This document shows positions 9,998-64,000 of a DNA stretch of 64,000 nucleotides, one piece after another. Every line of letters starts with the position of its first letter. The first letter of the stretch is position 1. The notes under the pieces were generated by a model. The model saw only the letters and a list, made by a program, of their open reading frames with translations, searched no databases and was not told where the DNA came from. The DNA is from an uncultured Methanosarcinaceae archaeon (lineage in GTDB: Archaea > Halobacteriota > Methanosarcinia > Methanosarcinales > Methanosarcinaceae): NCBI GenBank assembly GCA_963833425.1, contig CAWHXP010000006.1, positions 32,001-96,000 of the forward strand. The letters are read 5' to 3'. A program made the translations under genes and the position numbers.

Positions 9998-10173
9998 AAC
10001 TGTTTTTATGCGCTTTGGATACTTATTCCAAATAATACCTACTTATCTAACTTGATTGCTTTAAACATCAATTACAGTAATTTCTGCATCAATGGACCTT
10101 TTTTCCTTTGCCACTTAGATGCATGCATAGGTTTAATCACAAAAACTGTGCATAATGTAATTATACATATTCA

Positions 10174-19360: not shown

Positions 19361-19915
19361 TCAAAGACCCACCACAAAAGTGCAAGAATTTAAATATTCG
19401 TAAAAATGGCTAAATTTTTAGCGAGTACAATTTTACGACTGTTGAAATTTTAATTCGCTTATCAGTGGTAAATGAACTACAAAAATGCGATAATCAAATT
19501 TGGAAATCTAGATAGAGTTCTTAAAGATAATTACAATTATAAACTCGGAAACTAGGAGATATATTCAAATAATTGTTATTTGATGTAGATATTATTCAAT
19601 TTAATATCAAATTATATAATCTATAGGGAAGTGTGTGTACTTATCTGTATTTAGTACCTATAAACAAAACAGCAGTGCACTGAACAGTTCTGCAAATTCT
19701 AAATGACTCTGTATCCTTTTTTCCACTACACAGATATGATGTAAATTATAATTACACTAACAGAAATTATTTGTTTATTGTTTTTATTGATGCATAGTTT
19801 TTGTAAGAAAAACGATGTATTTTCTCATTTTTCGGTCGAAATATATATTGCGACGGAAAGCAAAAATCTTGCTACATTTATCCAGCGAAGGATAAAAATA
19901 ATGAAAATTATGTAA

Positions 19916-25790: not shown

Positions 25791-26243
25791 TATGCTTGCA
25801 GTTGTAACAAATATAGAGCCTTTTTGTAGCGATAAGTTTTACATTTCTCAAAGTGCCAATTCAGGAACCTACGCTTAATGTAGGTTTTGTAACATTTATT
25901 ATGGTTTTTTTTGCGGAGCAATAATAGGATATAAGTTAGGTCACTTCTTGGAATTGAAATAGAAATTCTAGGCGGCTTAATCTTTCTAGGACTTGGAATA
26001 TGTTCATTTGTATTTAATAATTGATTCAAACGATCATCATACACATAGGGATGCACAATTTTTTTAATAAAATCTCTGAATTTTCTAGGCTCTATCTGAA
26101 GTAGGAAAATATTGTAGATCTATTACTCATGGAGCTTATGGGCCTCATAGAACATGTGGGGCTCATGGAACACTTGGAACTACTTAACCTAAACAACCAT
26201 CATAATAGAAAAATAAGAAAAAATAGAATCAAATCGAAATCCT

Positions 26244-39212: not shown

Positions 39213-40067
39213 GGTTCTGTTGCAAAAAATCCTTTCTACTGATACAATAGAACAAAAAGAAAACCAAAGATAGTAACATGCTATCTAATTCCTTTAAATG
39301 GAAGCATTATGAAGGGGAAATTATCCTATTAAATGTAAGATGGTACTTAAAATATGCATTAAGTTATAGAAATTTAAAGGAAATGATGGCAGAAAGAGGA
39401 ATTCAAGTTGATCACAGTACTATAATAAGATGGGTGCATCAATATTCCCCTGAAATAGAAAAGAAAATAAGAAGACATTTAAGACTAACAAACTATTCGT
39501 GGAGAGTTGATGAAACCTATATCAAAGTAAAAGGTAAATGGAAATATTTTTATCGAGCAGTTGACTCAAATGGAAAAACAATTGATTTCATATTAAGTGC
39601 AAAACGAAATAGAAAAGCAGCGAAGAGATTCTTTAAGAAAGCTTTGAGTTCAAATCACAATCAAATTCCAAGAGTAATAACAGTTGATAAGAATCCAGCT
39701 TATCCGCCTGCTATAGATAAACTAAAAATTGACAAAATACTACCTAAAAACGTAGGCATTAGACAAATCAAGTATTTGAATAACATTATAGAACAAGATC
39801 ATAGATCTATAAAGCGGATAGTTCATTCAATGTTAGGATTTCAGTCTTTTCGATCTGCTAATAAAACTTTAAAAGTAATTGAAGCTATGAATATGATTAA
39901 AAAAAGACAAGTCAATAATTTAAATTACTCGGTTCCTAATGAAGTCAAATACATTAATCACTTATTTGGTATAGTTATATAATGTTGGTACATTTTCTTT
40001 GAATATTTTGATTTTTATTAATTACTTATAGATTTACATATTTTTTTGAAGTTTTTGCAACGGAACC
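39213..40067 (+). mobile_element. IS6-family element with intact transposase (CDS 39278-39982)
   Basis: TIRs GGTTCTGTTGCAAAAA / TTTTTGCAACGGAACC; WRVDETY, VDKNPAY and NNIIEQDHR DDE motifs. Confidence 0.96.
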
Positions 40068-43279: not shown

Positions 43280-44419
43280 ATGGAGCAAGTTCCCTTGACC
43301 AATAATGACATCTTACTCTGGGATGAAACATTATTTAAAGACCTTTCCGTTCTTGAGCCTGACTATCTACCCGAATATTTCCCTCATAGAGATTCACAGT
43401 TAGATGCGCTCAAATTCGCTCTTAGGCCAGCTCTGCGCAGCATGCGTCCTTTGAATTGTTTGCTTGTAGGTCCTCCTGGGACAGGAAAGACCAGTGCAGT
43501 TATGAAAGTTTTTAAAGAAGTTGAAGTCTATGCTCCTAATGTGGTCGTTGTAAAAGTCAATTGCCAGATTGATTCCACACGCTTTGCAGTAATCTCGAGA
43601 ATTTACAGGAAAATTTTTGGAATTTCGCCGCCTAATTCTGGAATTGCATTTCGGAAGATTTTTGAAAAAGTTGTTAATTTCCTTATATCTTCAGAAAAAG
43701 TGTTGCTTGTTGCACTAGATGATCTCAATTATCTTTGTTATGAAGGGGGGCATACCAATGAAGTGATGTATTCCCTGTTGAGGGCTCATGAACAGTACCC
43801 CGGAGTGAAAATAGGAGTAACCGGAATCGTAAATGACACATCTGACCTCTACTGTATAGATTCCAGGGTGAATTCAATTTTTCTGCCGGAAGAGATACCT
43901 TTTCCGAAGTATGAGAATGCGGAAATTCTTGACATTCTCAAGGACAGGATAAAATATGGATTCTATCCAAAGGTAATTTCGGATGAATTACTGAAACTTG
44001 TTGTTTCATATGTAGAAAAGACAGGAGACCTTAGAATTGGAATAGATCTTCTTAAGCGCTCCGGATTTAATGCAGAACGCAGGGGAAACCGTACAATTTC
44101 CTCTGAAGATGTAGAAAAAGCATATGAAGCAACCAAACTGCTCCACCTTTGCAGGGGCATAAGCCTCCTTTCATATCCTGAAAAACGTTTACTCGAGTTA
44201 ATAGCAAGAAAAGGAGAAATACAAGCCGGTGAGCTCTACAAGTCCTTCCATGAACTGCTGCATCTAGGATATACCCGTTTTTACGGAATTGTAAACAGAC
44301 TCCAGGTGCTTAACTACGTGGATGCGGATTTTTCTGGTAAGGGGCAGAGAGGTAGAACACGAATTATAAAAACAAAGTATGATACCAAGGATATACTTAA
44401 TTGCCTTGAAAAGAGCTGA
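43280..44419 (+). CDS. cdc6: ORC1/Cdc6-type replication initiator paralog
   Basis: YLPEYFPHRD, GPPGTGKT Walker A, VALDD Walker B, GDLR..DLL, C-terminal winged helix GQRGRTR. Confidence 0.95.
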   Translation: MEQVPLTNNDILLWDETLFKDLSVLEPDYLPEYFPHRDSQLDALKFALRPALRSMRPLNCLLVGPPGTGKTSAVMKVFKEVEVYAPNVVVVKVNCQIDSTRFAVISRIYRKIFGISPPNSGIAFRKIFEKVVNFLISSEKVLLVALDDLNYLCYEGGHTNEVMYSLLRAHEQYPGVKIGVTGIVNDTSDLYCIDSRVNSIFLPEEIPFPKYENAEILDILKDRIKYGFYPKVISDELLKLVVSYVEKTGDLRIGIDLLKRSGFNAERRGNRTISSEDVEKAYEATKLLHLCRGISLLSYPEKRLLELIARKGEIQAGELYKSFHELLHLGYTRFYGIVNRLQVLNYVDADFSGKGQRGRTRIIKTKYDTKDILNCLEKS

Positions 44420-49777: not shown

Positions 49778-50903
49778 TTACAGAGATTCTGGCATTATCC
49801 AGCAAGTATTCAGCCAGTTGCTTTTTGAGTTTCATGTAATCTACATCAGAGAGACCAATTGTGTTTAATGCACCATCCCTAAGCCAGCAAGGCTTGGTAA
49901 TTTTGCAACACCAAACCAGGCTCCCGAAGCAAGTATCTCCTCCAAACTCCAGCATAGTTCCCTTCGCAAAGTCAAACTTCGTCTTGGAAAACTCTTCTGC
50001 TGTATAACCCAGTTTTCGGAATTTTTCATGCACAGGACAGGGTTTAACAGGAAGACAACAAAAAGCAAGAGCTCTGAAGTTACCATCACTGCAAACATGC
50101 TTAGGGACATTATACCAGCCAATGGATCGCTGATAGGAACTAACGCTCTCTACCAGCTCCCCTATAAGTTCATGATTCTGCATAACTCCCCTGGCAACAG
50201 ATACCATGTCAACGCCGCGGGAAAACATATCCTTTGCTCCCTCAAAATCAGTGACCGAGTTATTACCTATAAGGAAGAGCCTTGTAGCATCCCTGTAATT
50301 ACTAATCGCATCAAGGTCAGCCCCAAAACCATTTCGGCTAGCATCAACGTGTATTATGTCAGCACCCGACTTATCTATGAGCCTGGCAAGCTCTATGTCA
50401 TTAACAACATTTGACCTCACTTTTACTGAAAGTATGACTCCAGTCTCCTTTATCGCCTTGATCCAAGTAGAAAGTCGCGGAAAATCATGGAGTAGAGCTT
50501 CCCCTGTTCCAACCTCGAGCATTTCTGGTTGCCTGCAGTGGGCATTTAGCTCGAGGATCGCTCCTTCTTCTTTTAGAAGTTTTGCAGCTTCGATAAGAGG
50601 TTCAAGTTTAGTACTTCTGACATTTACCGCGACTGCACTTTCGGAAATTATTTCCTGAATTTCCTTTTTAAGAAGTTCCATTGGTTCATCGGAGATGAAC
50701 TCTTTTCTACCCATAGCTACTAGATCTGATGCAACAGTAATTGAGGCTTTATCCAAATTGAAAGCTCCAAGAACTACCAGACCTGCATTACTTGCATACT
50801 TGTTAGCAAAACAGCTATCTACAACCCCTGCAATTGAAGCTAGTGCGATCGGATTTTTAAAACGGACATAGCCAATATGCAAATCAAACAGACAATCACT
50901 CAT
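49764..50903 (-). CDS. MJ0144-type DUS-like TIM barrel fused to methanogenesis marker protein 9 Cys-rich domain
   Basis: ELNAHCRQPE, IGNNSV and VSVARG; C-terminal HVC..G.FRALAFCC.PVKPCP and TCFGSLVWCCKITKPC. Confidence 0.88.
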   Translation of the reverse strand: MSDCLFDLHIGYVRFKNPIALASIAGVVDSCFANKYASNAGLVVLGAFNLDKASITVASDLVAMGRKEFISDEPMELLKKEIQEIISESAVAVNVRSTKLEPLIEAAKLLKEEGAILELNAHCRQPEMLEVGTGEALLHDFPRLSTWIKAIKETGVILSVKVRSNVVNDIELARLIDKSGADIIHVDASRNGFGADLDAISNYRDATRLFLIGNNSVTDFEGAKDMFSRGVDMVSVARGVMQNHELIGELVESVSSYQRSIGWYNVPKHVCSDGNFRALAFCCLPVKPCPVHEKFRKLGYTAEEFSKTKFDFAKGTMLEFGGDTCFGSLVWCCKITKPCWLRDGALNTIGLSDVDYMKLKKQLAEYLLDNARISVNESH

Positions 50904-51253
50904 GTTTTACCTCTTAAAAATAAGCTTGGAAGCTGACAAAAAATAATATTCATTGTCAGAGATCAAAAAGTAATGATAATTTTCTTTCGACGATCCTTGA
51001 AAAATGGAAAAATCCATCTATAACTTACGGACAATAATACATATATATTAATATTTTGATGCATTCAAATTCATAAATTTATATAAATTTATATCAAGTA
51101 CAAGGAACTAGTGCATCTTAATAAATTAACCTAATAATAAAATCGAAATATCTCAAAATTATCGTAAAAATATATTGTTTATCAACTTTTGGAAATGCAG
51201 GTTCCCAAAAAGATATATATAGCTAAAAATATCAATGCCAATTGATAAGTGAT

Positions 51254-51618
51254 ATGCGAGAGAGGCTGGACGGCTGACGGGCCTTCTGGTCTGAGGAAAG
51301 TCTCCCCACCACTCCGGACACACGAACATCTGTAAAGGATGTCGGGCGAGAGTCCAGGCTCTGGCACAGAAACGAGAACCATGCCTTGAAAATGCGATGA
51401 TACGTACGTTGAGGTCTCAGGGAAAGTGGATGAAACGGCGAACCCTCGTGGGTGCAAGTTGAAAATCGGGAATTAAGAGCAGTCCGGAATCTCCCGGTTA
51501 TTTTGGAAACGCATAGCTGAATGCCGTCACTGCAAGAGTCCTCAGGACCTTTTCCTCCACTGATGGGTGGCAGAAAATTTTGCAGGAACAGAAGGGAGCT
51601 TACGAGCCTCACTCGCAT
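51254..51618 (+). ncRNA. rnpB: RNase P RNA
   Basis: GAGGAAAGTCTCCCC and AACAGAAGGGAGCTTA P4 signatures; terminal P1 pairing atgcgagagaggct / agcctcactcgcat; GC-rich island. Confidence 0.96.
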
Positions 51619-51865
51619 AAAATTATCCTAAAAATCATTAACTATGTTCTAATAACCTTAGAACTCATTATTTTTCCCCATCATTTACATGCTATAGCTA
51701 TTTTGAATAGGTAAGATGCTGTAGTATCCAATTTAACTGTGAATTTGAAGTCAATTTTTTTGTGTACTGTTTATAAATAGGTCCTTCGGATTAGGAGGTA
51801 TATCTACTTTACAACTTATTAAGAATTTTGGCTTCAAAGAAAATTGTGCACGCTGCATAATTTAT

Positions 51866-51956
51866 AGAGGATTTTGATAAACCCCTAAATTTAGTCATGT
51901 GCGTATAAACTGAATATAAATAACTAATGAGAATCAGAGGTTTATCGAAACCCTCA
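51866..51956. mobile_element. IS5-TIR MITE (~90 bp)
   Basis: AGAGGATTTTGATAAACCCC ... GAGGTTTATCGAAACCCTC. Confidence 0.8.
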
Positions 51957-52126
51957 ACAGTCACTTCCTTAAATGAGAATGCAATACATATAAATATTTA
52001 AAAACAGAATAGTAGAGCATCATATTCCAGTTCGAGATCTATCCTGTTGTATGCTCATTTTAAACTGAATAACTACTTTCAATCACATAAAACAGAGAAA
52101 AGCCATTTTTTTCAGTTTTAACGATT

Positions 52127-53266
52127 TTATTTTGGAGGCAGGTTCAGCCAGAAAAAATTAAGCAATAACCATTGGACATAGCCCTTATAGTCCCTATTGA
52201 TCACTACTTCATCCAGATATTTCTCTAGAATTTCCCTGTTGCTAACAGCCAGTTTGAAAGAGATTTCTGGAAAACGATGCATTACCTTCTCCAATTTAAG
52301 AGAATTGGTAAGATAGTTTCCAAAATCCTGCCTACAACTCGATTCGTATTTTTTAATGTCATTTAACTTTCTGCCATACATCATAATGCCTGCAATCGTC
52401 TCTGCAGCGAGTTGTCCGGATCTAATAGCATAGGCCATACCTTCTCCTGAAAAAGCTTCTACAAAACCCGCAGCATCCCCGCTTAGAAGAATTCTTGAAT
52501 TTATTGTTTTTCTTGCGATTCCACCCACAGGGATGATATGGGAACGAATAGGAAAAGTGCCAGCAAAACCATTTTCCTGCAAAAAATCCAGCATCACTTT
52601 TTTCGGATTCTTAAAATATTGAGCTATTCCCATGACCCCTACAGAATAATATCCAGCATGAGGAAAAATCCAGCCATATCCTCCTTGAGCAATCCCGAAG
52701 TGAATATCTAGAGTGCCAGGACACTGAATCTGTATAGCTCCACTCTCATCAGGTATTTCTGACACAAGCCCAAGACAGTATTCTGTTCGTTTATCTTTTG
52801 ATCTAACTTTGTATTTAAGAGATCCACCTGAGCCTTCTGCGATCAGAACAAATTTCCCAAGATAAGTATTGTCCGTGGTCTTTACCTCAACGAAATTTTT
52901 TCTCCCAGTACAATCCAGAACCCTTTCTCCGGTATGAACCTCAATTCCAGTTTCTTTAGCTTTTTCAAGCAGAAAATAGTCAAAAACCGTTCTTGAAACT
53001 AACAAGGCTAGATTACCTTCTTTTTCTGCCTCTACAAAACCATCCATAAAATGAATTTTTACCTTTGAAATATATCTCTCAACCACATACCCAGGAAGAC
53101 TGAAATCTAAGCAAGATAAACCATATGAAGAAAGAGCACCCCCGCAAGATTTGTACCTCGGAAAATGTTCTTTCTCAAGCAGAAGGGTTGAAAGCCCCTG
53201 TTTTCCAGCTGTTCTTCCGGCAGATGCTCCTGAAGGTCCTCCTCCTACTATAATCAAATCATACAT
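52127..53266 (-). CDS. Geranylgeranyl reductase-family FAD oxidoreductase
   Basis: VGGGPSG, PRYKSCGG, GYGWIFP and GDAAGFVEAFSGEGMAYA. Confidence 0.92.
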   Translation of the reverse strand: MYDLIIVGGGPSGASAGRTAGKQGLSTLLLEKEHFPRYKSCGGALSSYGLSCLDFSLPGYVVERYISKVKIHFMDGFVEAEKEGNLALLVSRTVFDYFLLEKAKETGIEVHTGERVLDCTGRKNFVEVKTTDNTYLGKFVLIAEGSGGSLKYKVRSKDKRTEYCLGLVSEIPDESGAIQIQCPGTLDIHFGIAQGGYGWIFPHAGYYSVGVMGIAQYFKNPKKVMLDFLQENGFAGTFPIRSHIIPVGGIARKTINSRILLSGDAAGFVEAFSGEGMAYAIRSGQLAAETIAGIMMYGRKLNDIKKYESSCRQDFGNYLTNSLKLEKVMHRFPEISFKLAVSNREILEKYLDEVVINRDYKGYVQWLLLNFFWLNLPPK

Positions 53267-53299
53267 ATTTAAACACCTGCTTAATTATATGAGTTTAAA

Positions 53300-54290
53300 T
53301 TTAAAAGACAATGATGGAGATAGTATTTATGAGTAAGACTGAAATTTATAAGTTCAGAGTACTTATAATCTGCCATTTCAATGGAAGTGAAGACTTTGAA
53401 TATTAAGTCCGGAAGACGATTCATTATCTCGGAAAAAAATCAGCGAGTACTTAAGATGAGTCCCGCACTCTTCCTGGCAGAGAGATTTATGTATATCTAG
53501 ATCTTTGAGATTCCCACAACACAGACAAATTCCCGAGATCATTTCAGAAGCAAATTGCCCTGAGATAATGGAATAGGGTAATCCATTACATGAAAAATAA
53601 TCCACAAATCCGGCAGCACATCCGACTAGAAGAACTTTAGAGCCATTAATTCTTCTTTCAACTCCACCTCTCGGGATTTGATGTCCATGAATTTCATATT
53701 TACCGGAAAAAACATTTTTCCTTAGGAAATCAAGCATATATTTTTTAGGATGTGAAAAATTCTTGATAACCCCGCCAATTCCAACAGAATAATAGGTTTC
53801 GTGGGGAATAATCCAGCCACATATATCTCCAGAAATTCCAAAATACAGTTCTAAATTATTACTCAGACACTCTTCAATTTTGTTTTTTTTCGCAGGTACT
53901 TCTGCAACTACACACAACTAATATTCCCCCTGATATCTGCAGATTACACACATTTTTTGACTACACTCTGGATTCCTTCGGCAACTAGCGCAAACTTTGC
54001 ATTGTATACCGTCTTGTTAGTCTCCACTTCAACATAGGTGGGCATTTCCTCGCAGCAGAGAACTTTCTCCTTTGTCTGGACTTCGATTCCTGTTTCTTTT
54101 GCCTTTTCAGGAAGAAAAATATCAAATTCTTTCTGGAGATCAGAAATCGCATGTTTTGAAAGCCTTCACCACATAGCTTGTATCTATGAAATTTATCTTT
54201 CTCAAACATTTGTGTATTCAGGCCATGCTTCCATCTCCACCTCTGAACCGAGACGGAAGGACCACCACCTATAATAACTAAGTCATGCAT
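53300..54290 (-). pseudogene. Second GGR-family paralog, frameshifted and internally deleted
   Basis: MHDLVIIGGGPS, HRYKLCG, GWIIPH and LVGCAAGFVDY in different frames. Confidence 0.85.
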
Positions 54291-54731
54291 GAGAGTAACA
54301 CCTAAAAATATACACAAGTTTAGAAATTTTTAATTCTTTCCTGAATTTTAGATCTATCGCAGTCAATTGCAATAGAAGTAATGATAAATTATAGCGCTTC
54401 CTTAAGATATTAAAAGTATCCAATTTTATCTCAATATCACATATATCTAAAAAGAGCTAATTTAAAGTGTTGGTATCAGTTCAAAATTTAGATAAAATAA
54501 GGATTCTGGGAAAATAACATCAATAAAAAGCATTAAAGGGCTGAATAAAAATTAAATTCTAGACGTATAAAAGACACACAGAGCAAAAAAAATCTAAACT
54601 CTGCTATCCAGGACCCAGATGAAGGTAAATTTTGTACAATTTTACACATTACTGAAATGTATTTAACAAGTATCTATATCTATTTTGTTCCAAAATAACT
54701 ATGCTTTACCTGACTTTTTTGTAAAGAGACC

Positions 54732-55352
54732 TTAGTTCTTAAAAGTTTCAAAAACATCCAGAACCTTCTGATAATTTACTTCTGTTCCGAAGCAGCCGTC
54801 TCTTTCCGTAGGAATTCCGTAACTCACGACTTTTCTACCTTTGAGAGCACGCATAACTTTATTGATTTCATAATCACAGGCAATTAGAAGGACACCATCG
54901 GCAGTTTCCAATTTAAGGATATTTTTTATGTAAGAAGAACCTGTCAGAATAAATAATTTATATCCATATTTTTCGGAGTCTTTCTTCAAATTGGTATAAA
55001 CACATTTGCCACAGTAGTTACACTGAATTCCTGTCTGTATCGTGGGGGCTATGCAGTCAAGGTTCCGCATACAATGGGGAGCCAGTATAACCCTTTTTTT
55101 TGTTTTTGCAAAAGCAGATTTATATGCCCTATTTTTCAAAGATGACATCCATTTATCCAAAATACGCGTATCTGAAAACTTGAGGAAAAACTGTCTTAAA
55201 GGCAGATAAAAAAAATCGAGTACATTTGAAAAAAAACCTGCTAAATAAACGCTCCTTTTAAGACTTTGTTTGCTGACGACTAGAGCAATGCTCGAGAGGA
55301 TAAAGGATATTATTATAAAAAAGAAAAGTACCTTACCGATGGTGCTATACAT
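54732..55352 (-). CDS. DUF116-family membrane Cys-rich protein
   Basis: N-terminal TM, LAPHCMR...C..CGKC, GSS and ACDYE; start MYSTIGK overlaps the upstream stop. Confidence 0.85.
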   Translation of the reverse strand: MYSTIGKVLFFFIIISFILSSIALVVSKQSLKRSVYLAGFFSNVLDFFYLPLRQFFLKFSDTRILDKWMSSLKNRAYKSAFAKTKKRVILAPHCMRNLDCIAPTIQTGIQCNYCGKCVYTNLKKDSEKYGYKLFILTGSSYIKNILKLETADGVLLIACDYEINKVMRALKGRKVVSYGIPTERDGCFGTEVNYQKVLDVFETFKN

Positions 55353-55986
55353 TGCACATCTCCATTTTTTGAATAATCTCCTCAACGTTAGCTTTGGTAT
55401 TGAAACATCCATCTTTACGAAGAAGAATGCCATGAACAGAAACAAAAGATACAGCTTGCATGCTTTCAGCAAGCTCGTTATAACAGGCAACCCCCAGGCA
55501 AGCTTCAGGCATATATTCCTTAAAAATTTTTTTGATAAAACTCCCCCCTGGAACTACAAAAACCCTAAAGTTACATCTACCAGCAGCATCGCAGAGTTTC
55601 GAGATATCACATAGTCCACAACGCTTGCACTCATATCCAAAAACTGGATCACACCTAGCCTTGCAGCTGGGATGCCGCAAACACTGTGGAAGAAGCAAGA
55701 TTCTCCGGCCTTTTGTATGCAGAAAATCATCAAACATAACAGCATTCCGGATATCAATGAGTATATCATCAACAAGCGTATCCCTGATCCAGAAAACTTT
55801 ACATAGCCATTTTGCAGGAGAATAGAAAAAATAAAGTGTGAACAACACAAATCCCGGAAAAATGATCTTGTGATTTTTAAAAGAGTAAGCTCCTACTAAC
55901 AGGGCAATTCCCATACCTGCAAGAGCAAAGAGTATAAAGTATACGAATATTTTTCCAAGAAATTCATAAGGAATCTCCATATTCAA
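55345..55986 (-). CDS. DUF116-family membrane Cys-rich protein
   Basis: LLPQCLR..CKARC, CKRCGLC, PGGS, GVAC..EL and DGCFNT. Confidence 0.87.
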   Translation of the reverse strand: MNMEIPYEFLGKIFVYFILFALAGMGIALLVGAYSFKNHKIIFPGFVLFTLYFFYSPAKWLCKVFWIRDTLVDDILIDIRNAVMFDDFLHTKGRRILLLPQCLRHPSCKARCDPVFGYECKRCGLCDISKLCDAAGRCNFRVFVVPGGSFIKKIFKEYMPEACLGVACYNELAESMQAVSFVSVHGILLRKDGCFNTKANVEEIIQKMEMCNV

Positions 55987-56868
55987 GGGGAAGAAAGTAT
56001 CGCTATTTAAGCTTTACTATATTAACCTTGTTTAATAGTATGAAATTAATTTGGAGTGAAAAATCAGATTTTAGTCAAAAATTATTTAATAAAATTCAAA
56101 AATTAATTACTTACAATAGATTTCTTCATTCTTCCAAAATATGAAAATGGCCCTTCAATATAGAACTCAACTTGACAAATTAGGGATATAATTTAAAATT
56201 AATTATAGCCAGGCAACTATAAAAGTTCTAGATTATTTTCAAACTTACTTTAGACAATTTGATAAGGTAAACTCTGATTTCGGCTTGCTCTACGATTTCT
56301 GAACATAGAGTATTATCGAACCAGCTGTCTAACCTATTGAAGTTTAAAAAGTCTGTACGAACTCTCTTCTTTAAAGTATCGAATCATATTTGATAGAGAA
56401 TTTCCGATGGAATTTCATTAATAAATTAACGTGATCTTTACCTATTCCTATATACTAATTTTGTAGCCTTTCTCAACGCAAATAATGATAAGGATCTAAA
56501 TGAATCCTTTAATTTACTTATTGTAGAGAATTTAGATAAACCTCCAGAGTATATCTATACTTAGGCACCGACACTATGGGATAGACGACTTGACCATAGC
56601 AATGGCTAAATCTGTTTAATTTTAATGAGTATGATATCCCTGTAACATATGGATGCCACCACCTTTGACCATGGAAGCAAAAATAAACTCATTTTCAAAG
56701 AAGCTATGATTTAGAGAATTAAACGAAAACAAAAAGAAACGAGAGTCCATATCATTCCTACCTATGGAGTAGAATAGTTTTGACCGTCCGCACACCAGAA
56801 GCATAAAAAATAAGCCAAGACTATTTATTAAAAGAAGGACTGGAGATCCAGCCTTCGTATTCTTTTGT

Positions 56869-58102
56869 TTAATCCAGTTTCAGACCTAAAGCCTGTGCAA
56901 CTAGCTCAATGACATCTTCAACGTCGATGTCAGCTTTCATAGAGTCACGGCCATCCATCAGGTTTCTCTTACAAAATGGACATGCACTTGACAGGATATC
57001 TGCTTTGGTTTCGAGAGCATCCTTAACTCTGGACTGTGCAACACCATCTGCAAGATCAGGGATACCAGCCTTTACTCCACCTCCGGCTCCACAACAGCGC
57101 TGAAATTCTTTGATCCTATCCATTTCAACGAACTTGACACCCGGAATGTGAGTAAGAACATACCTAGGCGCATCATATACGCCTACGTGACGGCCTAGGT
57201 GACAGGGATCATGGTAAGTAATTGTCTTATCAATAGACTTTTCCCATTTAATTTTTCCCTGCTTTATCAGGTCTGCAAGGAACTCAGTGATATGAACAAC
57301 CTCAAAAGGCAGTTCTTTGCCGAGAAGTCTTGGCCAGTCTACTTTTGCAGCACGGAAACAGCCTGAACATGCGAATAGGACTTTTTTAGCACCTTTTTTC
57401 ATGATGGCTTCTACATTGTGTTTTGCAACTTGAAGGGGCATCATATCATTGACATGTGCCTGCCCTGTCCTGATCAGGGCAGAACCACAGCACCATTCAT
57501 CTTCCCCAAGCATAGCAAACTTAATGCCTAGCTTGTTAAGCACACGAGAGGTAGCAAAGGCTAGAGTGAGCTGCTTGTACCCTGCAGTACAACCAGTGAA
57601 ATAGACAATGTCTGATTTGTCTTCAATTTTCACATCATCTGGAACCCAGGCAAGCCTGTCTTTCTGGTCAAGAAGGTAAGGGTTATGGTACTGCCCAATA
57701 AGCTTCGGGAACATATTTTGCTTTCCGTACGGACCAATACCTTTCTTGACAAGGTTTGCCCTCAGGGCTTCCCAGAGTTCTACGGTGTTGATGCCGGATT
57801 CACAGACAGTCCCACATATACCGCAGGTTGTGCAGCTGTGAACATCATCTTTAAACTCCTCAAGTTCCGACTGAGGAGATTTCCTGCGGACCAAAGAGCT
57901 TTGCTCTGATCCCATAGGATTTGTTCATGTACTGCCTCCAGCGTAGGATCTTGTCTCTGGGAGCTAAGCCCGGTTTCCCATCGGTGGCAGCATAAGTTGG
58001 GCACCATTTGACACATTCACCACAGCGTGTGCAGGAGTCGAGTTCCATAAGTTGAACTGCTGTAAGATTCTTCGTATCAATTGAAGGGGTACGTTTTGCC
58101 AT
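56869..58102 (-). pseudogene. hdrD: Heterodisulfide reductase catalytic subunit HdrD; one +1 frameshift at ~57875 (real or sequencing error)
   Basis: Two CxxCxxC ferredoxin motifs and CCG domains ([27 protein letters not shown]); start-to-stop length 1234 = 3n+1. Confidence 0.93.
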
Positions 58103-58106
58103 TTTT

Positions 58107-58897
58107 TTATTCGCCTCCTTTGTTTGCAAGAATTGCAAGTGGCGTAGCGATTACATGAATGTATTTACTGTATGGAACATATGCGATGCAGAAGAGAAGG
58201 GAAATTATGGAGTGGAACAGTGCTGCAGGCGGAGCTGATGCTGGATTTAGTCCAAAGCCCCAGATAATATCGTTCCTAATACCATCGGCAATAAAGCCGG
58301 TGATTGTGATTATGAAAACTCCTGCGAGAAGAAGCCAATCATACATTATGGAAACTTGCCTGATTTCTGTAACAAAAAGTCTTCTCACTATTGCAATGAG
58401 GACTCCGATAAGTAGAATGTACCCGAAAACATAGTTTGGGAAAGATAGGATATCTCTAAATTCAGCAGGTGGTGAAAGGAAGCTTGAGTCCTAATCTTTT
58501 CGGTCATTTCGACTGTAAACATCATCCCTGACATAGCAAAGAGGCTCATCCAGCCTGCAAAAATACAGAAGTGCATGAACCAGCGAAAAGTACTCCTTTT
58601 GAGAATTCTTCTCTGGAAGAGAATATCAAGAATTAGAACCTCTAAGATAGGCTTTCCGTGTCCATGACGAGACACCTCAGTGACCTGCCTCCACCAGGTT
58701 TTTAAGAACCTGATAGCACTCCCCTTCTGCCCTACCTGAGGTTCAAGGGCATAACCTGTTACTCCGGACCCCCATTTCTGGAGGTTACTTATCATACCAT
58801 ATAAGAAAATCACAATAGCTATTGTGCTGAATATCATTATCTGAACAAACGTCATCCTCATTGTTTCTGAGAGCCCAGAATAGTATGCGTATGCCAT
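58107..58897 (-). pseudogene. hdrE: Heterodisulfide reductase cytochrome b subunit HdrE; two +1 insertions at ~58493 and ~58471 (real or sequencing error)
   Basis: RWFMH, ALFHS and [10 protein letters not shown]; length 791 = 3n+2; removing two bases restores KIGLKLPFTPAEFRD. Confidence 0.92.
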
Positions 58898-59254
58898 TTC
58901 ACTGCTAATAGTCTATTCCTCCTATATATAGTCAAAAACTAAGAACTAATGTTACTCCTAAAATTAACATGTTATAAAGTGTAAATAACAGTAAATACAG
59001 AGTGATAACCGTAACAACTGTCTGCATAAGGTTTGAATAATCTGTTAGACTTTGTATTTATTATATTTAAACGTTATCTTTAATTTGCAATACATCGAAA
59101 AGCTTGCAAGAGCCGCGAAAATTTTTGCTTGGAACTAATCGAACAGAAAGAAAAAAGAAGGAGAATAAATAAGGATAAGAATTAAATTATAATATCATCA
59201 TATATATATCATTATGAAATTTTTCTCTAATGAATATAAAAAATAATTTATAAA

Positions 59255-59672
59255 TAAATCACAATCAAATGCCGAGAGCAATAACAGTTGATAAGAATCT
59301 AGCTTATTCTATTGCCATACATGAACTGAAAAATGAAAAAAAGTTGTCTAAAAGGATTGAAATGAGATCAGTAAAATATTTGACTAACATTGTAGAACAA
59401 GATCAGAGGTCTATCAAGCGGATAATTGCTCCAATGCTAAGCTTCGGTCTTTTCGCTCTGCAAGTAAGATTTATAAAAGGAATTGAAGATTTGAATATGG
59501 TTAAAAAAGGACAAATCAAGAATCTAAACTACTCTGGTCTGAATGAAGCTAAATATACCAACCAATTATTTGGAATAGTTCTGTAATATTGATAAATTTT
59601 TCTCGGATATTTTGACTTTTGTTCATCACCCATATATTTACGTGCTTATTCTGATATTTTTGCAACGGAATC
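59255..59672 (+). mobile_element. IS6-family 3' fragment with right TIR
   Basis: PRAITVDKN, KYLTNIVEQDQR and TTTTTGCAACGGAATC end. Confidence 0.88.
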
Positions 59673-59847
59673 ATTCTTGGTATTGTTTGAATATATATAG
59701 TATACAAATACGATTCAGTGAGGATCCCTGTTTTAATATGCTCGCCTGATAGCTGTAAAATAATACGAAAAAATATACCGATTTTTAAATTAAACTTGTC
59801 CTTCTCTTGAATTCTTGGAGCATTTCAAGTTAGTCCTACCCATCTCC

Positions 59848-59882
59848 ATAATGCATATATTAAAATATAATCTATGTATTAT
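59848..59882. promoter_or_regulatory. 14-7-14 imperfect palindrome; candidate recombination or autoregulatory site
   Basis: ATAATGCATATATT-aaaatat-AATCTATGTATTAT, 12 of 14 arm positions complementary, ending 19 bp before the recombinase ATG. Confidence 0.45.
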
Positions 59883-59901
59883 ACTTCGTTGGAGATTCCT
59901 T

Positions 59902-60510
59902 ATGGAAAAATACAAAATGTCAGGATACAGAAAAGATCCTGAAGTTCTACACCTCTACGTAAAGGATATTAGGATTTTGACACCGAAGGATTATGAAACC
60001 TTAAAAGCTGCTATTCCGAAAGACTCCCATAGAGCAGTACTCGACATCCTTTTAATCACAGGTATGCGGTATGCTGAGATGCTCAGGCTTTACAACCACA
60101 GAGAGTGGTACAATGATAAGCGGAATATAATCCACCTGCCTGAAGAGGCTCAGAAGAAACATAAAAGAAGACAGCTTGAAAGAACTATCCATCCACTACC
60201 TAGCATGTTTAACTACATTCTCAGAGATTTTTGGGAAGGGAAAAGACCACCTCTAGAACCTACATGGAACAAGAATTTTCAAAGATGGGCTATGAAAGCA
60301 GGCATCAACCCATATGGATTTTCAGTTAAAACTACAAGGAAGACTATAGAGTCATGGATGATAGCCGCCGGAGTGATTGAATCCACTGTGTGTTTGCGCC
60401 AGGGACACGACTCACTCACTTCAATGCGCCATTATCAGGGGCTCGCTTTTTCTGATGACGAGATGAGAGGTATCAAAAAGCAGTTAACAGCTTGGGGATT
60501 AATGAGATGA
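59902..60510 (+). CDS. Minimal tyrosine recombinase (catalytic domain only)
   Basis: LLITGMRYAE (R1), K-rich beta region, VKTTRKT (KxxR), RQGHDSLTSMRHY (H...Y); RBS ggag upstream; 202 aa. Confidence 0.88.
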   Translation: MEKYKMSGYRKDPEVLHLYVKDIRILTPKDYETLKAAIPKDSHRAVLDILLITGMRYAEMLRLYNHREWYNDKRNIIHLPEEAQKKHKRRQLERTIHPLPSMFNYILRDFWEGKRPPLEPTWNKNFQRWAMKAGINPYGFSVKTTRKTIESWMIAAGVIESTVCLRQGHDSLTSMRHYQGLAFSDDEMRGIKKQLTAWGLMR

Positions 60511-60686
60511 CAACTAAAAATACAGAGGCATTAGAATCTGTGATTCAGCCACCTAACCAAAAATTGTGTATGAGATTAAATCAAGATCAGGAACTAAAAC
60601 CTCGAATTATGAAAGATGGCCATATTGCCAAAAATTCGCTGTTTCACAATCATGCAGGAGAGAATATTGGAATTATACAAGTGTAA
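60507..60686 (+). CDS. Small hypothetical protein coupled to the recombinase (ATGA overlap); possibly AbrB-like
   Basis: 59 aa; PRIMKDGHI...AGENIGII resembles a swapped-hairpin pattern (inference). Confidence 0.55.
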   Translation: MTTKNTEALESVIQPPNQKLCMRLNQDQELKPRIMKDGHIAKNSLFHNHAGENIGIIQV

Positions 60687-60831
60687 ATCAAATTTTACAA
60701 TTCCAAAGATAGAGATAAAAGAGCGATCTACAAATAATAGATTGCCAAAAGGGTTGATTAAATACGTTAAATGCCCTAAAAATGACGGATTTAAGCCAGT
60801 TAGGGCTATAATAAAGCCAAGAGAATACTTA

Positions 60832-60910
60832 AGAAGATTTCAATAAAACTCTATTTTCACGAGTAATTTATATTCCATATATAATATATGAGAGCTTATC
60901 GAAATCCTCT
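60832..60910. mobile_element. IS5-TIR MITE (~80 bp)
   Basis: AGAAGATTTCAATAAAAC ... GCTTATCGAAATCCTCT. Confidence 0.7.
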
Positions 60911-61050
60911 TCATGATCAACCAATCAAATATTGGATCTTTGGGAAATTTTCTTGTAACTCATGAGCCAGTTAAATTTTTCAGACTGGACAGGAAGGGGA
61001 AAAAGAATACCCTAATATATTTGAATTTCTTAATGAAATGATTTTTCGAG

Positions 61051-62244
61051 TTATGCTCTCATTTTCTGAGCCAACTGTCTACCTATTTTCTCAACCTTTT
61101 TTAAATCTTCGTCGTTGGCTCTACCTCTCACTTGGAAGTTTCCCACAATCTCCAGTTTTGAAGAGATAAGAATCTCTCCGGCTTGTTTGAGTGCTCCTCC
61201 GCCCCAACCAAAGGACCCAAGTACAACACCATACTTTGCCGGTGGATTGAGAGCTTTTACTAGATAAGTACCATAAAGAGCAAGCGGATGCATACCTCCA
61301 AGAACTGTAGGTACTCCGATAACAATCGAACGGGAGTCAACTAGTTCTCTTGCAACATCTCCAATATCTGAGACTGCAAGATCATACATTTTAACATCTA
61401 CCCCTTCTTTAAGAAGAATTTCTGCAATTGTCCGAACCATATCTCGAGTGGATCCCCACATACTCACATAGATGATAAGGGCTTTATTCTCTGTTTTCCC
61501 TGCAGTCCATTTAACATACGGACCGATAATACGGTTTGGATTTGTGTAAATCGGCCCATGACTCGGCGCAATTATTTTGATATTAAGATCCTTAATTTTA
61601 TCAAAAGCTTTTACCCCCATTTTCCCGAAAGGCATCATGATTTCCCCATAATAACGTTTTGCAAAAGGGATCAGTTCTTCGATATCTTCATCGTAGATTC
61701 CCTGAGCTGTATGGGCCCCGAAAAAATCGCATGAAAAAAGAATTTTGTCCTCAGATAAGTATGTGAACATTGTCTCAGGCCAATGAAGCCAGGGAGCTTC
61801 TATGAAACGGAGGGTCTTTCCACCCAGATCAAGGTTGTCTCCGTCAGCGACTATTTTAATCCTGACTTCAGGCAGCTCGTGATAGAGCCTGGCCATACTT
61901 ACTCCTTTTTCGGTTGTGACAAATAAGGCATTTGGAGCTTTTTCTAGGATAAATTTGATGGAATTGGAGTGATCCGGTTCTGCATGGTTCATGATCAAGT
62001 AATCAAGCTTTTCCAAATCAGAGATCATATTGATTTTTGCTTCAAGTTCCTCTTCAAAACCCGGATTCACTGTATCTATTAGAGCTGTTTTCTTTTCACC
62101 TTTTACGTAGTATGAGTTGTAGCTCGTGCCATCTGGCAGAGGAATTAAAGCATCAAACATTCTGCGTGTCCAGTCTTTTGCCCCGACACTGAAAACATTA
62201 TTAGAAATCTCTGGAATATTATAAGTTTTCATAGTTTCCTCCAT
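61051..62244 (-). CDS. fprA: Flavodiiron protein (FprA/A-type flavoprotein)
   Basis: GTSYNSY, NHAEPDH, HWPETM, SCDFFGAH, PSHG and flavodoxin SMWGST/GSFGWGG. Confidence 0.96.
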   Translation of the reverse strand: MEETMKTYNIPEISNNVFSVGAKDWTRRMFDALIPLPDGTSYNSYYVKGEKKTALIDTVNPGFEEELEAKINMISDLEKLDYLIMNHAEPDHSNSIKFILEKAPNALFVTTEKGVSMARLYHELPEVRIKIVADGDNLDLGGKTLRFIEAPWLHWPETMFTYLSEDKILFSCDFFGAHTAQGIYDEDIEELIPFAKRYYGEIMMPFGKMGVKAFDKIKDLNIKIIAPSHGPIYTNPNRIIGPYVKWTAGKTENKALIIYVSMWGSTRDMVRTIAEILLKEGVDVKMYDLAVSDIGDVARELVDSRSIVIGVPTVLGGMHPLALYGTYLVKALNPPAKYGVVLGSFGWGGGALKQAGEILISSKLEIVGNFQVRGRANDEDLKKVEKIGRQLAQKMRA

Positions 62245-62685
62245 TCTACATGATGGAATTTAAAAACATAACTAAATTTTGAACTATTTTTATCAATCTA
62301 ATAACTATTCATCAAAATTTTCGTTTATCTCAGCACATGAACTCAATGCTAAAATTCAGCACAGTGATTATCTGACGTGGTAGATTTGTAGACTTGAGAA
62401 TATGTGCTTAAAATATAGGTTACATAATTTGTTTGATGTATATTTGGCATTTTTAAAATATCTAATTATCTCAATATAATAACGCCTTATTATATTTAGA
62501 TAATTATATTAATAGAATAAGTTACGCTCCTCCTTTACACACGATATTTCCAAGATAACTAATAGTTCCTACGGAAAAATGAGCGGAATTACCTCAAGAT
62601 TCATTTCAGTAGAGATCACACAGAGTGTAGAGGATATGGGAAACTTTCCAGAGAACCATTATTAACTGACAAATTTGTATTTCAA

Positions 62686-63170
62686 GCTACCTTTGAATTA
62701 TATAAATGGAACTACGTGATGAAAATCATCAGTCTATAAAAATATTATATTATACTGTTTTTGAGAAGTATTACAAAAAACTCTCTTAAACAATGACTGC
62801 ATCAAAGTTTGAAAGACATATAGTCTGAAATTGATAAAAAGTACTGTTTTAAGTTTGATGCAATCGGTACTTTGGTAATCGTGTACATCTTTTCATTAGT
62901 GATGAACCAAAAAATATCTTTCAGAAATGATGCAAATTACAAAGAATATCGCTGCAAAAAAAAATCATTCAAGAATACTATGTGATTAAAAAAGTTATTT
63001 GGTGGCAAGCTGAAAGTGATTGAGACAACATCAAGCTGTTTGTGGTGATACAACTTCCGATGATACTAAAAAATAAATTTAGAATCGGGAAACAAAAAAG
63101 AAAAAAAAATCATAGAAACAAATGAAAATACTAAATTTGGAATGATTCCTTTATATTCGGAGTAGGGGCT
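62686..63170 (+). mobile_element. tnpA: IS200-type TnpA pseudogene
   Basis: MELRDENH, YCFKFDAIGT, RVHLFISDEPK, MMQITKNIAAKK and KESxKQMKILN across many lesions. Confidence 0.7.
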
Positions 63171-63316
63171 CAAACTTACACATTGTTTGGAGTTGCGTAC
63201 GTTCTCACACCAAAATTTTGAGATTAAGCGAAATATTTAAATCCAGCTAACAGTTTGTTAATAAGTGTACACAAAATGTAAAGATGGATTGATTCGGAAT
63301 ATAAAAAATTTTCAAA

Positions 63317-63388
63317 TGGACTCGACGGGATTTGAACCCGTGGCCTTTACGTTGCGAACGTAACGATCTTCCCCTGATCTACGAGCCC
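63317..63388 (-). tRNA. tRNA-Ala (anticodon CGC)
   Basis: GGGCTCGTAGATCAGGGGAAGATCGTTACGTTCGCAACGTAAAGGCCACGGGTTCAAATCCCGTCGAGTCCA cloverleaf with G3:U70 pair; CCA not encoded. Confidence 0.96.
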
Positions 63389-63451
63389 TTTAAAAGAAGG
63401 GGGTGATATAAAAATATTTATCCGGGTATATTGTCCGGCTCTTTTTTCTGT

Positions 63452-63721
63452 TCAGAAACGATAGAGTTCCAGAACCTGAATGTTTTCGACGCCTGGGACT
63501 TTTGCGAAAGCCTCTTCTATAGCTTCGGTTCCACCTTCTCTGTCATTTACAATTAAAGTAGCTATAAGGGCCTTCAGCCCGAAAGCAATGGGTTCTTCAA
63601 TAATATCCCCATGAAGGTCAGCACCTACTGGAATTGCACCTTTTATCTTTTCTTTTAGCTCTACAAGGTTAGTATCAACACTTTCAGGCATGATTTTCAT
63701 TTTTGCCGCAACTTCACCCAT
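63452..63721 (-). CDS. ef1b: Archaeal elongation factor 1-beta
   Basis: KIMPES, EEPIAFGLKAL, EGGTE. Confidence 0.96.
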   Translation of the reverse strand: MGEVAAKMKIMPESVDTNLVELKEKIKGAIPVGADLHGDIIEEPIAFGLKALIATLIVNDREGGTEAIEEAFAKVPGVENIQVLELYRF

Positions 63722-63817
63722 TCTGATACCTCTGATCTTTTAGCTTCTTCTGTTGATCAAGTTCATTTTTGATTTTCTTATTAAACGTTTCTATATGATT
63801 CAGAACTTTGCCTTAAA

Positions 63818-64000
<183 letters not shown>

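Follow-up and report, generated by a model that had tools for sequence, protein, structure and literature searches.

Introduction

TnpI, a two-domain protein encoded inside Tn3-family transposons (Tn4430 and Tn5401), has a multi-motif internal resolution site upstream of its own gene that overlaps the promoter, and binding to this site regulates expression. FimB and FimE from E. coli, each of about 200 amino acids (aa), have no separate core-binding domain and act on short inverted sites near their own genes, and some Xer genes adjoin their dif site. Here we analyse a 202-aa tyrosine recombinase and the palindromes upstream of its gene in a 64,000-nucleotide stretch of DNA from an uncultured Methanosarcinaceae archaeon (assembly GCA_963833425.1, contig CAWHXP010000006.1, positions 32,001 to 96,000; hereafter the window, whose numbering is used throughout). 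An earlier reading of the letters alone (the sequence-only reading) had proposed a two-component resolvase or invertase, in which a 59-aa protein encoded directly behind the recombinase supplies DNA binding or directionality and a 14-7-14 palindrome in front of the gene is the crossover site. We find a recombinase reduced to its catalytic domain and preceded in its family by two conserved, covarying dyads, one of which recurs in type at 88 places in the genome. On balance we favour the interpretation that the locus is a site-specific recombination module that regulates itself and has target sites throughout the genome, and we hold that the small protein plays no part in it.

Simple two-domain tyrosine recombinases are described in an excerpt of PMC8138268 as consisting of a core-binding and a catalytic domain. 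Integrases of the SSV1 type are marked by the residues R...KXXR...Y and hold the att site inside their gene, which is split on integration (PMC8371274, excerpt). RAYTs are REP-linked transposases encoded by a single-copy conserved gene beside the same palindromes (PMC2817692, excerpt). Databases already label proteins of the family studied here as integrases. A limited literature search found no paper on the recombinase family or the palindromes, the supplements of PMC8138268 being a place where the family may be listed; a search on Methanosarcina together with extragenic palindromes or intergenic repeats found no paper naming the genus, the family's other names not being searched.

Results

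A predicted tyrosine recombinase consisting of the catalytic domain alone

The recombinase open reading frame (ORF) at 59902-60510 on the plus strand is intact. Pfam family PF00589 matches residues 26-181 of the 202 with 39.3 bits against a cut-off of 27.1 and is covered from position 3 to 168 of its 172 profile positions, a placement that leaves only 25 residues before the catalytic domain. In an alignment of 38 family sequences, R56, K86, K88, K143, R146, H169, H177 and Y178 are all invariant, which bears out the R...KxxR...H...Y signature picked out by the sequence-only reading. K143 of the K143-x-x-R146 motif stands where HxxR has its first histidine, and because this lysine is invariant in the 38-member alignment, the exchange of lysine for histidine is a trait of the family. 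AlphaFold2 returned a confident tyrosine-recombinase fold (pLDDT 90, pTM 0.88), whose top Foldseek matches in the Protein Data Bank (PDB) were archaeal XerA (5hxy and 4a8e), Tn1549 Int, XerH and an integron integrase; there were 17 PDB matches at E ≤ 0.001, every one among the matches listed is a tyrosine recombinase, and the SSV1 catalytic domain came at rank 34. A search of solved structures by sequence gave no relevant match. The profile score above cut-off, the catalytic residues and the catalytic-domain fold place the protein in the tyrosine recombinase superfamily, and the N-terminal core-binding domain of about 100 aa that is part of simple two-domain members is absent from its 202 residues.

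The DNA upstream likewise leaves no space for the domain. In 37 of 37 full-length loci a stop codon closes the frame within 231 nucleotides (nt) of the position equivalent to residue 1, the distance being no more than 108 nt in 34 loci, leaving at most 77 codons before that position. Because of these stops, no family copy could accommodate a core-binding domain of some 100 aa, which extends to the family what had been claimed for the window's gene.

The R...KxxR...Y signature is shared with the SSV1-type integrases as they are characterized in the excerpt of PMC8371274, and the earlier remark that KxxR occurs in that group agrees with it. Unlike the genes described there, the recombinase gene is whole and has its dyads upstream; no search for split halves was made.

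The ratio of nonsynonymous to synonymous substitution rates (dN/dS) of the recombinase gene is 0.067-0.100 against the records of five syntenic relatives and 0.03-0.13 across all 15 pairs of six genomes, with dS to the window copy of 0.25-0.32. Close relatives carry the gene between the same neighbour genes as the window, and because they share these neighbours, the recombinase has been kept intact at one chromosomal place. Judged from these alignments, the gene is under purifying selection at a fixed position in the chromosome. Alignment, profile and structural model together support the conclusion that the ORF encodes a real, intact and minimal tyrosine recombinase whose activity is predicted.

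Two conserved and covarying dyads upstream of the gene

The palindrome named by the sequence-only reading lies at 59848-59882. Its arms (59848-59861 and 59869-59882) surround a spacer at 59862-59868, are complementary at 12 of 14 positions and end 19 nt before the ATG, as had been described; the ATG itself is at 59902 (59903 is one base off). As single-stranded DNA the element folds with z = -3.96, and Rfam has no family in 59000-61200. Palindromes of 14-7-14 geometry with at least 12 of 14 matches number three in the window and 103 in the 4.07-Mb genome (0.025 per kb), and Markov simulations of the window gave a mean of 0.66 and a maximum of 3. Because such palindromes are not rare in the genome, a single one is weak evidence alone, and as we read the sequences, the significance of this one rests on comparison with relatives and not on its rarity.

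Across 24 family members with 59-100% protein identity, two dyad-symmetric elements are conserved in the 170 bp upstream of the gene. The consensus of the distal dyad (site I) is near CACAGGTTTT, a few bases and AAAACCTGTG, and is built of arms of about 11-13 bp, an A/T tract and a 5-nt centre; that of the proximal dyad (site II, the palindrome described above) is near ACATAGGTT, TAAATAT and AATCTATGT, with its arms 2 bp closer together. Paired columns are complementary in 203 of 261 cells of the distal and 193 of 264 cells of the proximal dyad, as opposed to 19-44% and, for the proximal dyad, 22-44% when the partner column is slid by 1-3 positions. Changes on both sides occur in 12 of 23 column pairs, compared with at most 6 after sliding, and the covariation score is 0.190, compared with at most 0.081. 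Among 500 shuffles none reached the observed values for percent paired, cells changed on both sides or covariation, and 28 and 22 reached those of two other measures; because the sequences are related, these figures are not probabilities. The two sides of the matter as first raised thus come apart: the palindrome is not rare when counted alone, but it is conserved in 24 loci with compensatory changes.

Half-sites follow the protein. They differ between protein clades and are common to both dyads of one copy, and clades at 46-55% identity have dyads at the same places with different half-sites. In the clade with a short N-terminus the proximal dyad adjoins the start codon; in the clade of the window's gene its centre is TATA-like. 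We ran a script that pairs two dyads sharing a half-site word on 64 non-duplicate loci, and in 20 of the 22 loci where it paired dyads their centres are 82-84.5 bp apart. The stretch between the dyads has the same orientation in all 24 aligned loci. In the window, the position homologous to the distal dyad (59776-59799), which alignment and sequence place about 77 bp from the centre of site II, has lost its symmetry and shows no fold (z = +0.58).

The centre of site II (59860-59870, plus strand), 31-42 nt before the ATG, resembles a TATA box, and its columns are nearly invariant in the upstream alignment. A TATA-like element serves as the core promoter in archaea, and by this analogy we infer that the centre of site II is a promoter element. 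Contigs from RNA libraries of relatives (public runs) cover the gene from 59803 onwards, a coverage to which DNA carry-over possibly contributes. Conservation and covariation support the palindrome being best explained as the recombinase's own putative binding site, which would lie over the core promoter. It is more likely an operator or accessory site, because it lies over the TATA-like box, than a crossover site, because breakpoints, solo sites and dispersed sites (see below) show the geometry of the distal dyad. The earlier proposal is therefore retained as far as a conserved putative binding site is concerned, but not in the crossover role that it assigned to this palindrome. The arrangement is like that of TnpI in that a putative recombinase site lies directly upstream of the recombinase's own gene and over its promoter, and unlike it in that there is no transposase, there are two full dyads, and solo and dispersed sites occur elsewhere.

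The distal dyad marks one border of a small mobile unit

What travels in this family is a compact unit of some 750 bp, composed of the distal dyad, about 83 bp, the promoter-proximal dyad and the gene. Between copies at separate loci, similarity begins at about -125 to -140 (-73 to -81 in the short-N-terminus clade) and lasts up to the stop codon; example pairs are 96% identical from -140 to +3, 90% from -127 to +1 and 91% from -81 to -6. When a 3.6-kb locus (L017) was compared with 41 genomes of the genus, its flanks were never matched; the six matches reaching the upstream dyad begin at 1368-1388 of this locus, and the full-length ones end at 2096-2120, the stop codon lying at 2109. Two other copies, 99.95% identical over 2232 bp, differ in the left dyad arm and have unrelated leftward flanks, and in a further trio the right arm and everything rightward of it are common and the centre and left arm differ. 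Such patterns of arms and flanks are what exchange inside the distal dyad would leave, although alignment cannot place the crossover within a palindrome. A model in which the copies derive from a one-site circle was considered and rejected: the border at the stop codon carries no site, and because of this a simple one-site circle does not explain the copies.

A strict version of the site pattern matched 11 places in five genomes, and the reversed-pattern control matched none. Five of the 11 are solo sites, with no recombinase remnant within 3 kb. The half-site pattern of a second clade is found almost solely beside that clade's own genes.

Larger structures adjoin the dyads at some loci. A 14.5-kb island that is 98% identical in two genomes (loci L076 and L078; genomes G071 and G104) begins exactly at a distal dyad; no site was found at its right end. 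Its contents are genes for an archaeal-type ATPase, a lectin-domain protein and a 334-aa zinc-ribbon integrase as well as large unknown ORFs; genes for a rolling-circle Rep and an Abi protein are found immediately outside. The island has the look of a provirus or a plasmid. Four genomes of the M. barkeri group (L085, on contig 1 of genome G116, and L086-L088) have two further full sites behind the recombinase gene, at a distance of 274 bp (503 bp in one genome) and of about 1.1-1.35 kb. Their centres, CCTAT and ATAGG, are reverse complements, and the pair brackets about 970 bp of non-coding DNA that precedes a glycan cluster with PIG-L-like, ATP-grasp and glycosyltransferase genes. Taken together, the outer site and a half-site repeat the two-dyad promoter region in inverted orientation. 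The bracketed segment has one orientation in all four genomes.

Palindromes of the distal type are dispersed through the genome

We searched for the distal-type pattern, allowing at most 2 mismatches, in the genome to which the window belongs (80% complete, 4.07 Mb, 21 contigs) and in other genomes. The window holds three matches, at 10125-10151 (pattern search and sequence), 19792-19818 and, weakly, 26053-26079 (pattern search for both), where 0.01 were expected. The genome as a whole has 88 and its closest relative, whose recombinase is 95% identical, 43; two further genomes of the genus have 14 and 11 and the remaining ones 0-7, three recombinase-bearing genomes of a second genus have 1-2, and 110 genomes of 14 other genera have none, the reversed control giving 0-1. 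The dispersed palindromes are thus nearly restricted to the window genome and this relative. Across the genus, sites accompany the recombinase in 24 genomes; the recombinase occurs alone in 3, sites alone in 2 and neither in 5. The scan for second copies suggested by the sequence-only reading thus divides by dyad type: apart from one half-like place on contig 15, the genome has no second copy of the whole 35-bp proximal palindrome at up to 6 mismatches, but it has the 88 palindromes of the distal type.

The dispersed repeat unit is the palindrome alone, about 31 bp long with arms near ATGCATAGnTTTT on either side of a 5-nt centre, and 26 of the 88 sites have the centre GCTAT or its complement ATAGC in common. 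Two of the 88 fall inside an ORF of at least 120 aa, compared with 188 of 400 random places. The sites lie on contigs C2-C20 of the genome, in some regions clustered among ordinary genes, the nearest being about 40 kb from the recombinase gene. Repeated segments of 0.5-3.5 kb with 92-98% identity end exactly at a site; of the interior ends of repeated matches, 9 of 62 fall within -5 to +32 of a site start, where 1.6% would be expected. Several matches to the genome of the closest relative also begin at a site, and two palindrome-rich islands match that genome in mosaic fashion only. The palindrome-rich island on contig C10 contains a second orc1/cdc6 gene and a fragment of one.

The same genome contains ten full-length tyrosine recombinase genes with near-identical scores (open frames of 350-411 aa; among them C6:1326-2156 and C8:240819-241649), and several of the ten are located at contig ends. 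A tie between these genes and the dispersed sites was considered and rejected, as just one of the genes has a site within 2 kb; the ten probably represent a multi-copy mobile element without connection to the palindromes.

With REP/RAYT systems, as far as these are described in the excerpt of PMC2817692, the locus shares a lineage-specific burst of short extragenic palindromes and a single-copy, conserved, immobile-looking enzyme gene that has such palindromes beside it; many lineage-restricted extragenic palindromes are thus present, but the enzyme is not of the HUH (IS200/IS605-like) kind. RAYTs are HUH (Y1) transposases acting on single-stranded hairpins, whereas a conservative tyrosine recombinase is encoded here, and RAYT genes are flanked by REPs, whereas both dyads here lie upstream of the gene.

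Cre/loxP and the integron pair IntI/attC resemble the present system in having arms on either side of a short centre that, by its sequence, determines compatibility and direction, and in one of our islands the sites follow 3' gene ends, as attC sites do. Over the whole genome, 53 sites have a 3' end and 35 have a 5' end as their closest gene terminus, and the orientation of the centre relative to the gene side is 14 to 6, a weak polarity. Integron-like polarity throughout the genome was accordingly rejected, having been seen in the one island. Unlike Cre and IntI, the recombinase has no N-terminal domain, and unlike an integrase beside a cassette array of one polarity, its gene does not adjoin an array.

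The ORF behind the recombinase has no conserved counterpart

The 59-aa ORF at 60507-60686 (plus strand) exists as reported: it is open in the window and coupled to the recombinase stop codon by an ATGA overlap. It matches no protein family model. A tblastn search with it gave matches solely in the closest relatives, in five locus records (one a duplicate) whose recombinases are 94-95% identical and in which the ORF is merely 45-60% identical; a sixth such record gave a weak partial match, and no match at E ≤ 10 was found in the other 36 of 43 loci. In five distinct close relatives the homologous frame is broken, being 7, 7, 18 and 25 aa long in four and lacking a start in the fifth (ATA for ATG), and the DNA alignment of the region has 1-bp indels and a 58-bp deletion in addition to this ATG-to-ATA change. 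In family copies of 70-80% identity homology ends at the recombinase stop codon. On these comparisons we judge the ORF not to be a gene, and the expected co-conservation of a small protein with the recombinase was not borne out.

Size and distribution of the family

A word-indexed protein search yielded 232 relatives among 274 candidates. Those listed (120 of the 232) are 185-273 aa long, and the named ones are site-specific integrases or tyrosine-type recombinases of Methanosarcina; no family homologue of at least 355 aa was found, which is weak evidence by the search tool's own rating. A profile search of 1.84 billion representatives returned 753, 307 and 79 proteins at E ≤ 1e-3, 1e-10 and 1e-30, respectively, the 307 being clusters at 50% identity, and 143 of the best 150 profile matches have fewer than 250 aa. 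Genome matches at E ≤ 1e-10 occur in 49 of 151 sampled genomes of the taxonomic family and in 27 of 34 genomes of the window's genus, with up to seven family matches in one genome and stop codons in many of them. Five Methanosarcina plasmids carry one copy each, and phage records contain no match to the recombinase family. The recombinase of plasmid pC2A, named ssrA in an excerpt of PMC9569500, was examined as a possible relative and rejected, since it has 314 aa and is unrelated to the 202-aa protein (BLASTP E = 5.1).

Outside the syntenic relatives, no conserved neighbour gene of family copies was found. Among 109 ORFs flanking family copies 72 have no Pfam match, and the others are a mixture of nucleases, transposases, glycan genes and ordinary genes, the glycan genes being found repeatedly beside family copies.

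The neighbourhood in the window

The sequence-only reading had noted insertion sequence (IS) debris around the recombinase and no adjacent att-tRNA. An IS fragment does lie beside the gene, and a tRNA-Ala gene (63317-63388) is the sole tRNA gene in 50000-64000. The fragment, identified by family models, is the C-terminal part of an IS6 transposase (59269-59586, plus strand) upstream of the recombinase and takes the place of about 430 bp present in close relatives; the window also has an intact IS6-type ORF (39278-39982). A probable IS end is formed by the first 70 bp of 59600-59670, which are repeated at many positions in the genome. At two other loci, a repeat of about 205 bp with 94-96% identity (L089, 16743-16950; L092, 11238-11452), which occurs at many places in the closest relative, several of them at contig ends, is likewise likely an IS end.

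Downstream of the recombinase, on the opposite strand, is a flavodiiron gene, and upstream beyond the IS6 fragment are hdrE-like and hdrD-like genes. These and a DUF116 gene (56869-58897 and 54732-55986, minus strand) are each split into two overlapping or abutting ORFs; the frameshifts may reflect errors in the 21-contig assembly and not decay. Elsewhere the window holds ordinary chromosomal genes, encoding histidyl-tRNA synthetase, NAD synthesis, NiFe hydrogenase with its hyp genes, orc1/cdc6 and the thermosome, the orc1/cdc6 gene (43280-44419, plus strand) lying 16 kb from the recombinase.

Discussion

We consider it probable, with some reserve, that the recombinase and its dyads form a self-regulated site-specific recombination module whose target sites are spread over the genome. 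This interpretation draws on the fold and catalytic residues of a protein that lacks the N-terminal domain, on dyads that are conserved and covary, on the borders of the travelling module, and on the dispersal of sites outside genes. In the mechanism that we propose, one recombinase monomer would bind each half-site, the four half-sites forming two dyads in helical phase. Occupation of site II would shut off the gene's own promoter, and site II may also help build the synapse because it is in phase with site I, eight helical turns (about 83 bp) away. Site I and others of its type would be where strands are exchanged. Within this lineage the gene appears to have become fixed in place with site II intact and its local site I decayed, the site type having multiplied through the genome; the likely substrates would be the extragenic palindromes of this type, roughly 88 in number, where duplicated or mosaic segments begin or end. 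A stronger form of this proposal strikes us as possible but doubtful: that a domesticated catalytic-domain-only recombinase services some 90 REP-like palindromes, is held in check by its promoter site, recombines compatible sites such as the 26 with GCTAT/ATAGC centres, and so shuffles, duplicates and imports gene segments.

Several observations count against the module. Binding, cleavage and rearrangement by the recombinase are predictions, and the label of resolvase or invertase is unproven. A recombinase without a core-binding domain may need a partner, and none was found. Site I is degenerate beside the window's own gene and is already weakened in the records of five relatives. The script paired dyads in only 22 of the 64 loci, and control regions farther upstream gave 5 dyad pairs, 2 of them at 81.5 bp. 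No site lies behind the stop codon at the right border of the module, and no pair of an occupied and an empty site was found, the flanks of the five solo sites and of L017 matching no other locus. The spread to 88 sites is unexplained, as conservative recombination does not itself multiply sites. The two genomes with 14 and 11 sites have only broken copies of the matching clade, and because related genomes are not independent, the cross-tabulation of recombinase and sites overstates their link. Finally, no recombinant joints were seen in the contigs of four public runs, which are contigs of relatives only and cover at most 22% of the sampled words.

A different history, which we regard as unlikely, is that the gene is the relic integrase or resolvase of a lost plasmid or provirus, that its dyads are self-repression operators only, and that the dispersed palindromes are an unrelated REP-like repeat that spread by other means and merely shares sequence with them. 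Such an origin is suggested by the family copies on five Methanosarcina plasmids and in the provirus-like island with its rolling-circle Rep, ATPase and second integrase, by the many broken copies and the decay of site I in the window, and by a neighbourhood in which nothing but the IS6 fragment looks mobile. A relic is hard to square, however, with strong purifying selection at one chromosomal place across the records of five relatives, with half-sites that covary with the protein clade, and with dispersed sites that match the local clade in their half-site, are restricted to where this clade is present and coincide with segment borders. A Fim-like invertase, in which a short enzyme would flip a segment between inverted sites and so switch neighbouring genes, seems to us very improbable. 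The recombinase resembles FimB and FimE in its size of about 200 aa and in lacking a core-binding domain, the inverted M. barkeri-group sites do bracket a segment between the recombinase gene and a glycan cluster in four genomes, and glycan genes recur beside family copies; but that segment, the only inverted site pair found, lies one way round in 4 of 4 genomes and the inter-dyad stretch in 24 of 24 promoter regions, in assemblies that display only the majority form, and the window has no second site within about 40 kb of the recombinase. The system further differs from Fim in its full palindromes and archaeal hosts.

The two other proposals can be very nearly dismissed. The two-component resolvase or invertase of the sequence-only reading had in its favour the ATGA overlap and the frame open in the window, but it fails because the 59-aa ORF is not conserved: the frame is truncated or has lost its ATG in 5 of 5 distinct close relatives, whose DNA has indels and a deletion, the ORF is unmatched beside other family members and in family models, and the homology of more distant copies stops where the recombinase does. 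We give scarcely more than nominal credence to the idea that the recombinase is the cell's Xer and the palindrome its dif, acting in chromosome dimer resolution. The archaeal XerA proteins of Pyrococcus abyssi (4a8e) and Thermoplasma (5hxy) are the best structural matches and likewise pair one recombinase with a dyad-symmetric site, and the closeness of some Xer genes to dif fits as well. Against this, the protein scores 19.4 bits on the archaeal XerA equivalog model (NCBIfam NF040815), below its cut-off of 220, has no core-binding domain and has lysine for the first histidine of HxxR; and where XerA would be expected as one conserved chromosomal copy in nearly every genome, the family is patchy (49 of 151 genomes), often multi-copy with many broken members, and found on plasmids, with two dyads at a fixed 83 bp.

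If the module that we favour exists in its stronger form, in which the recombinase services the dispersed palindromes, archaea would possess an equivalent of REP/RAYT or integron-type platforms that uses another kind of enzyme. The family is a whole conserved group of recombinases without a DNA-clamping domain, each with a co-evolving pair of sites at fixed helical phase, and offers a small, defined system for studying DNA recognition and synapsis by a catalytic domain on its own. Tools could also come from the short, orthogonal pairings of recombinase and 31-bp site, which belong to a methanogen genus amenable to genetics. Through its link with a burst of palindromes outside genes, sited where mosaic segments have their borders, the recombinase becomes a candidate enzyme for REP-like repeats in archaea.

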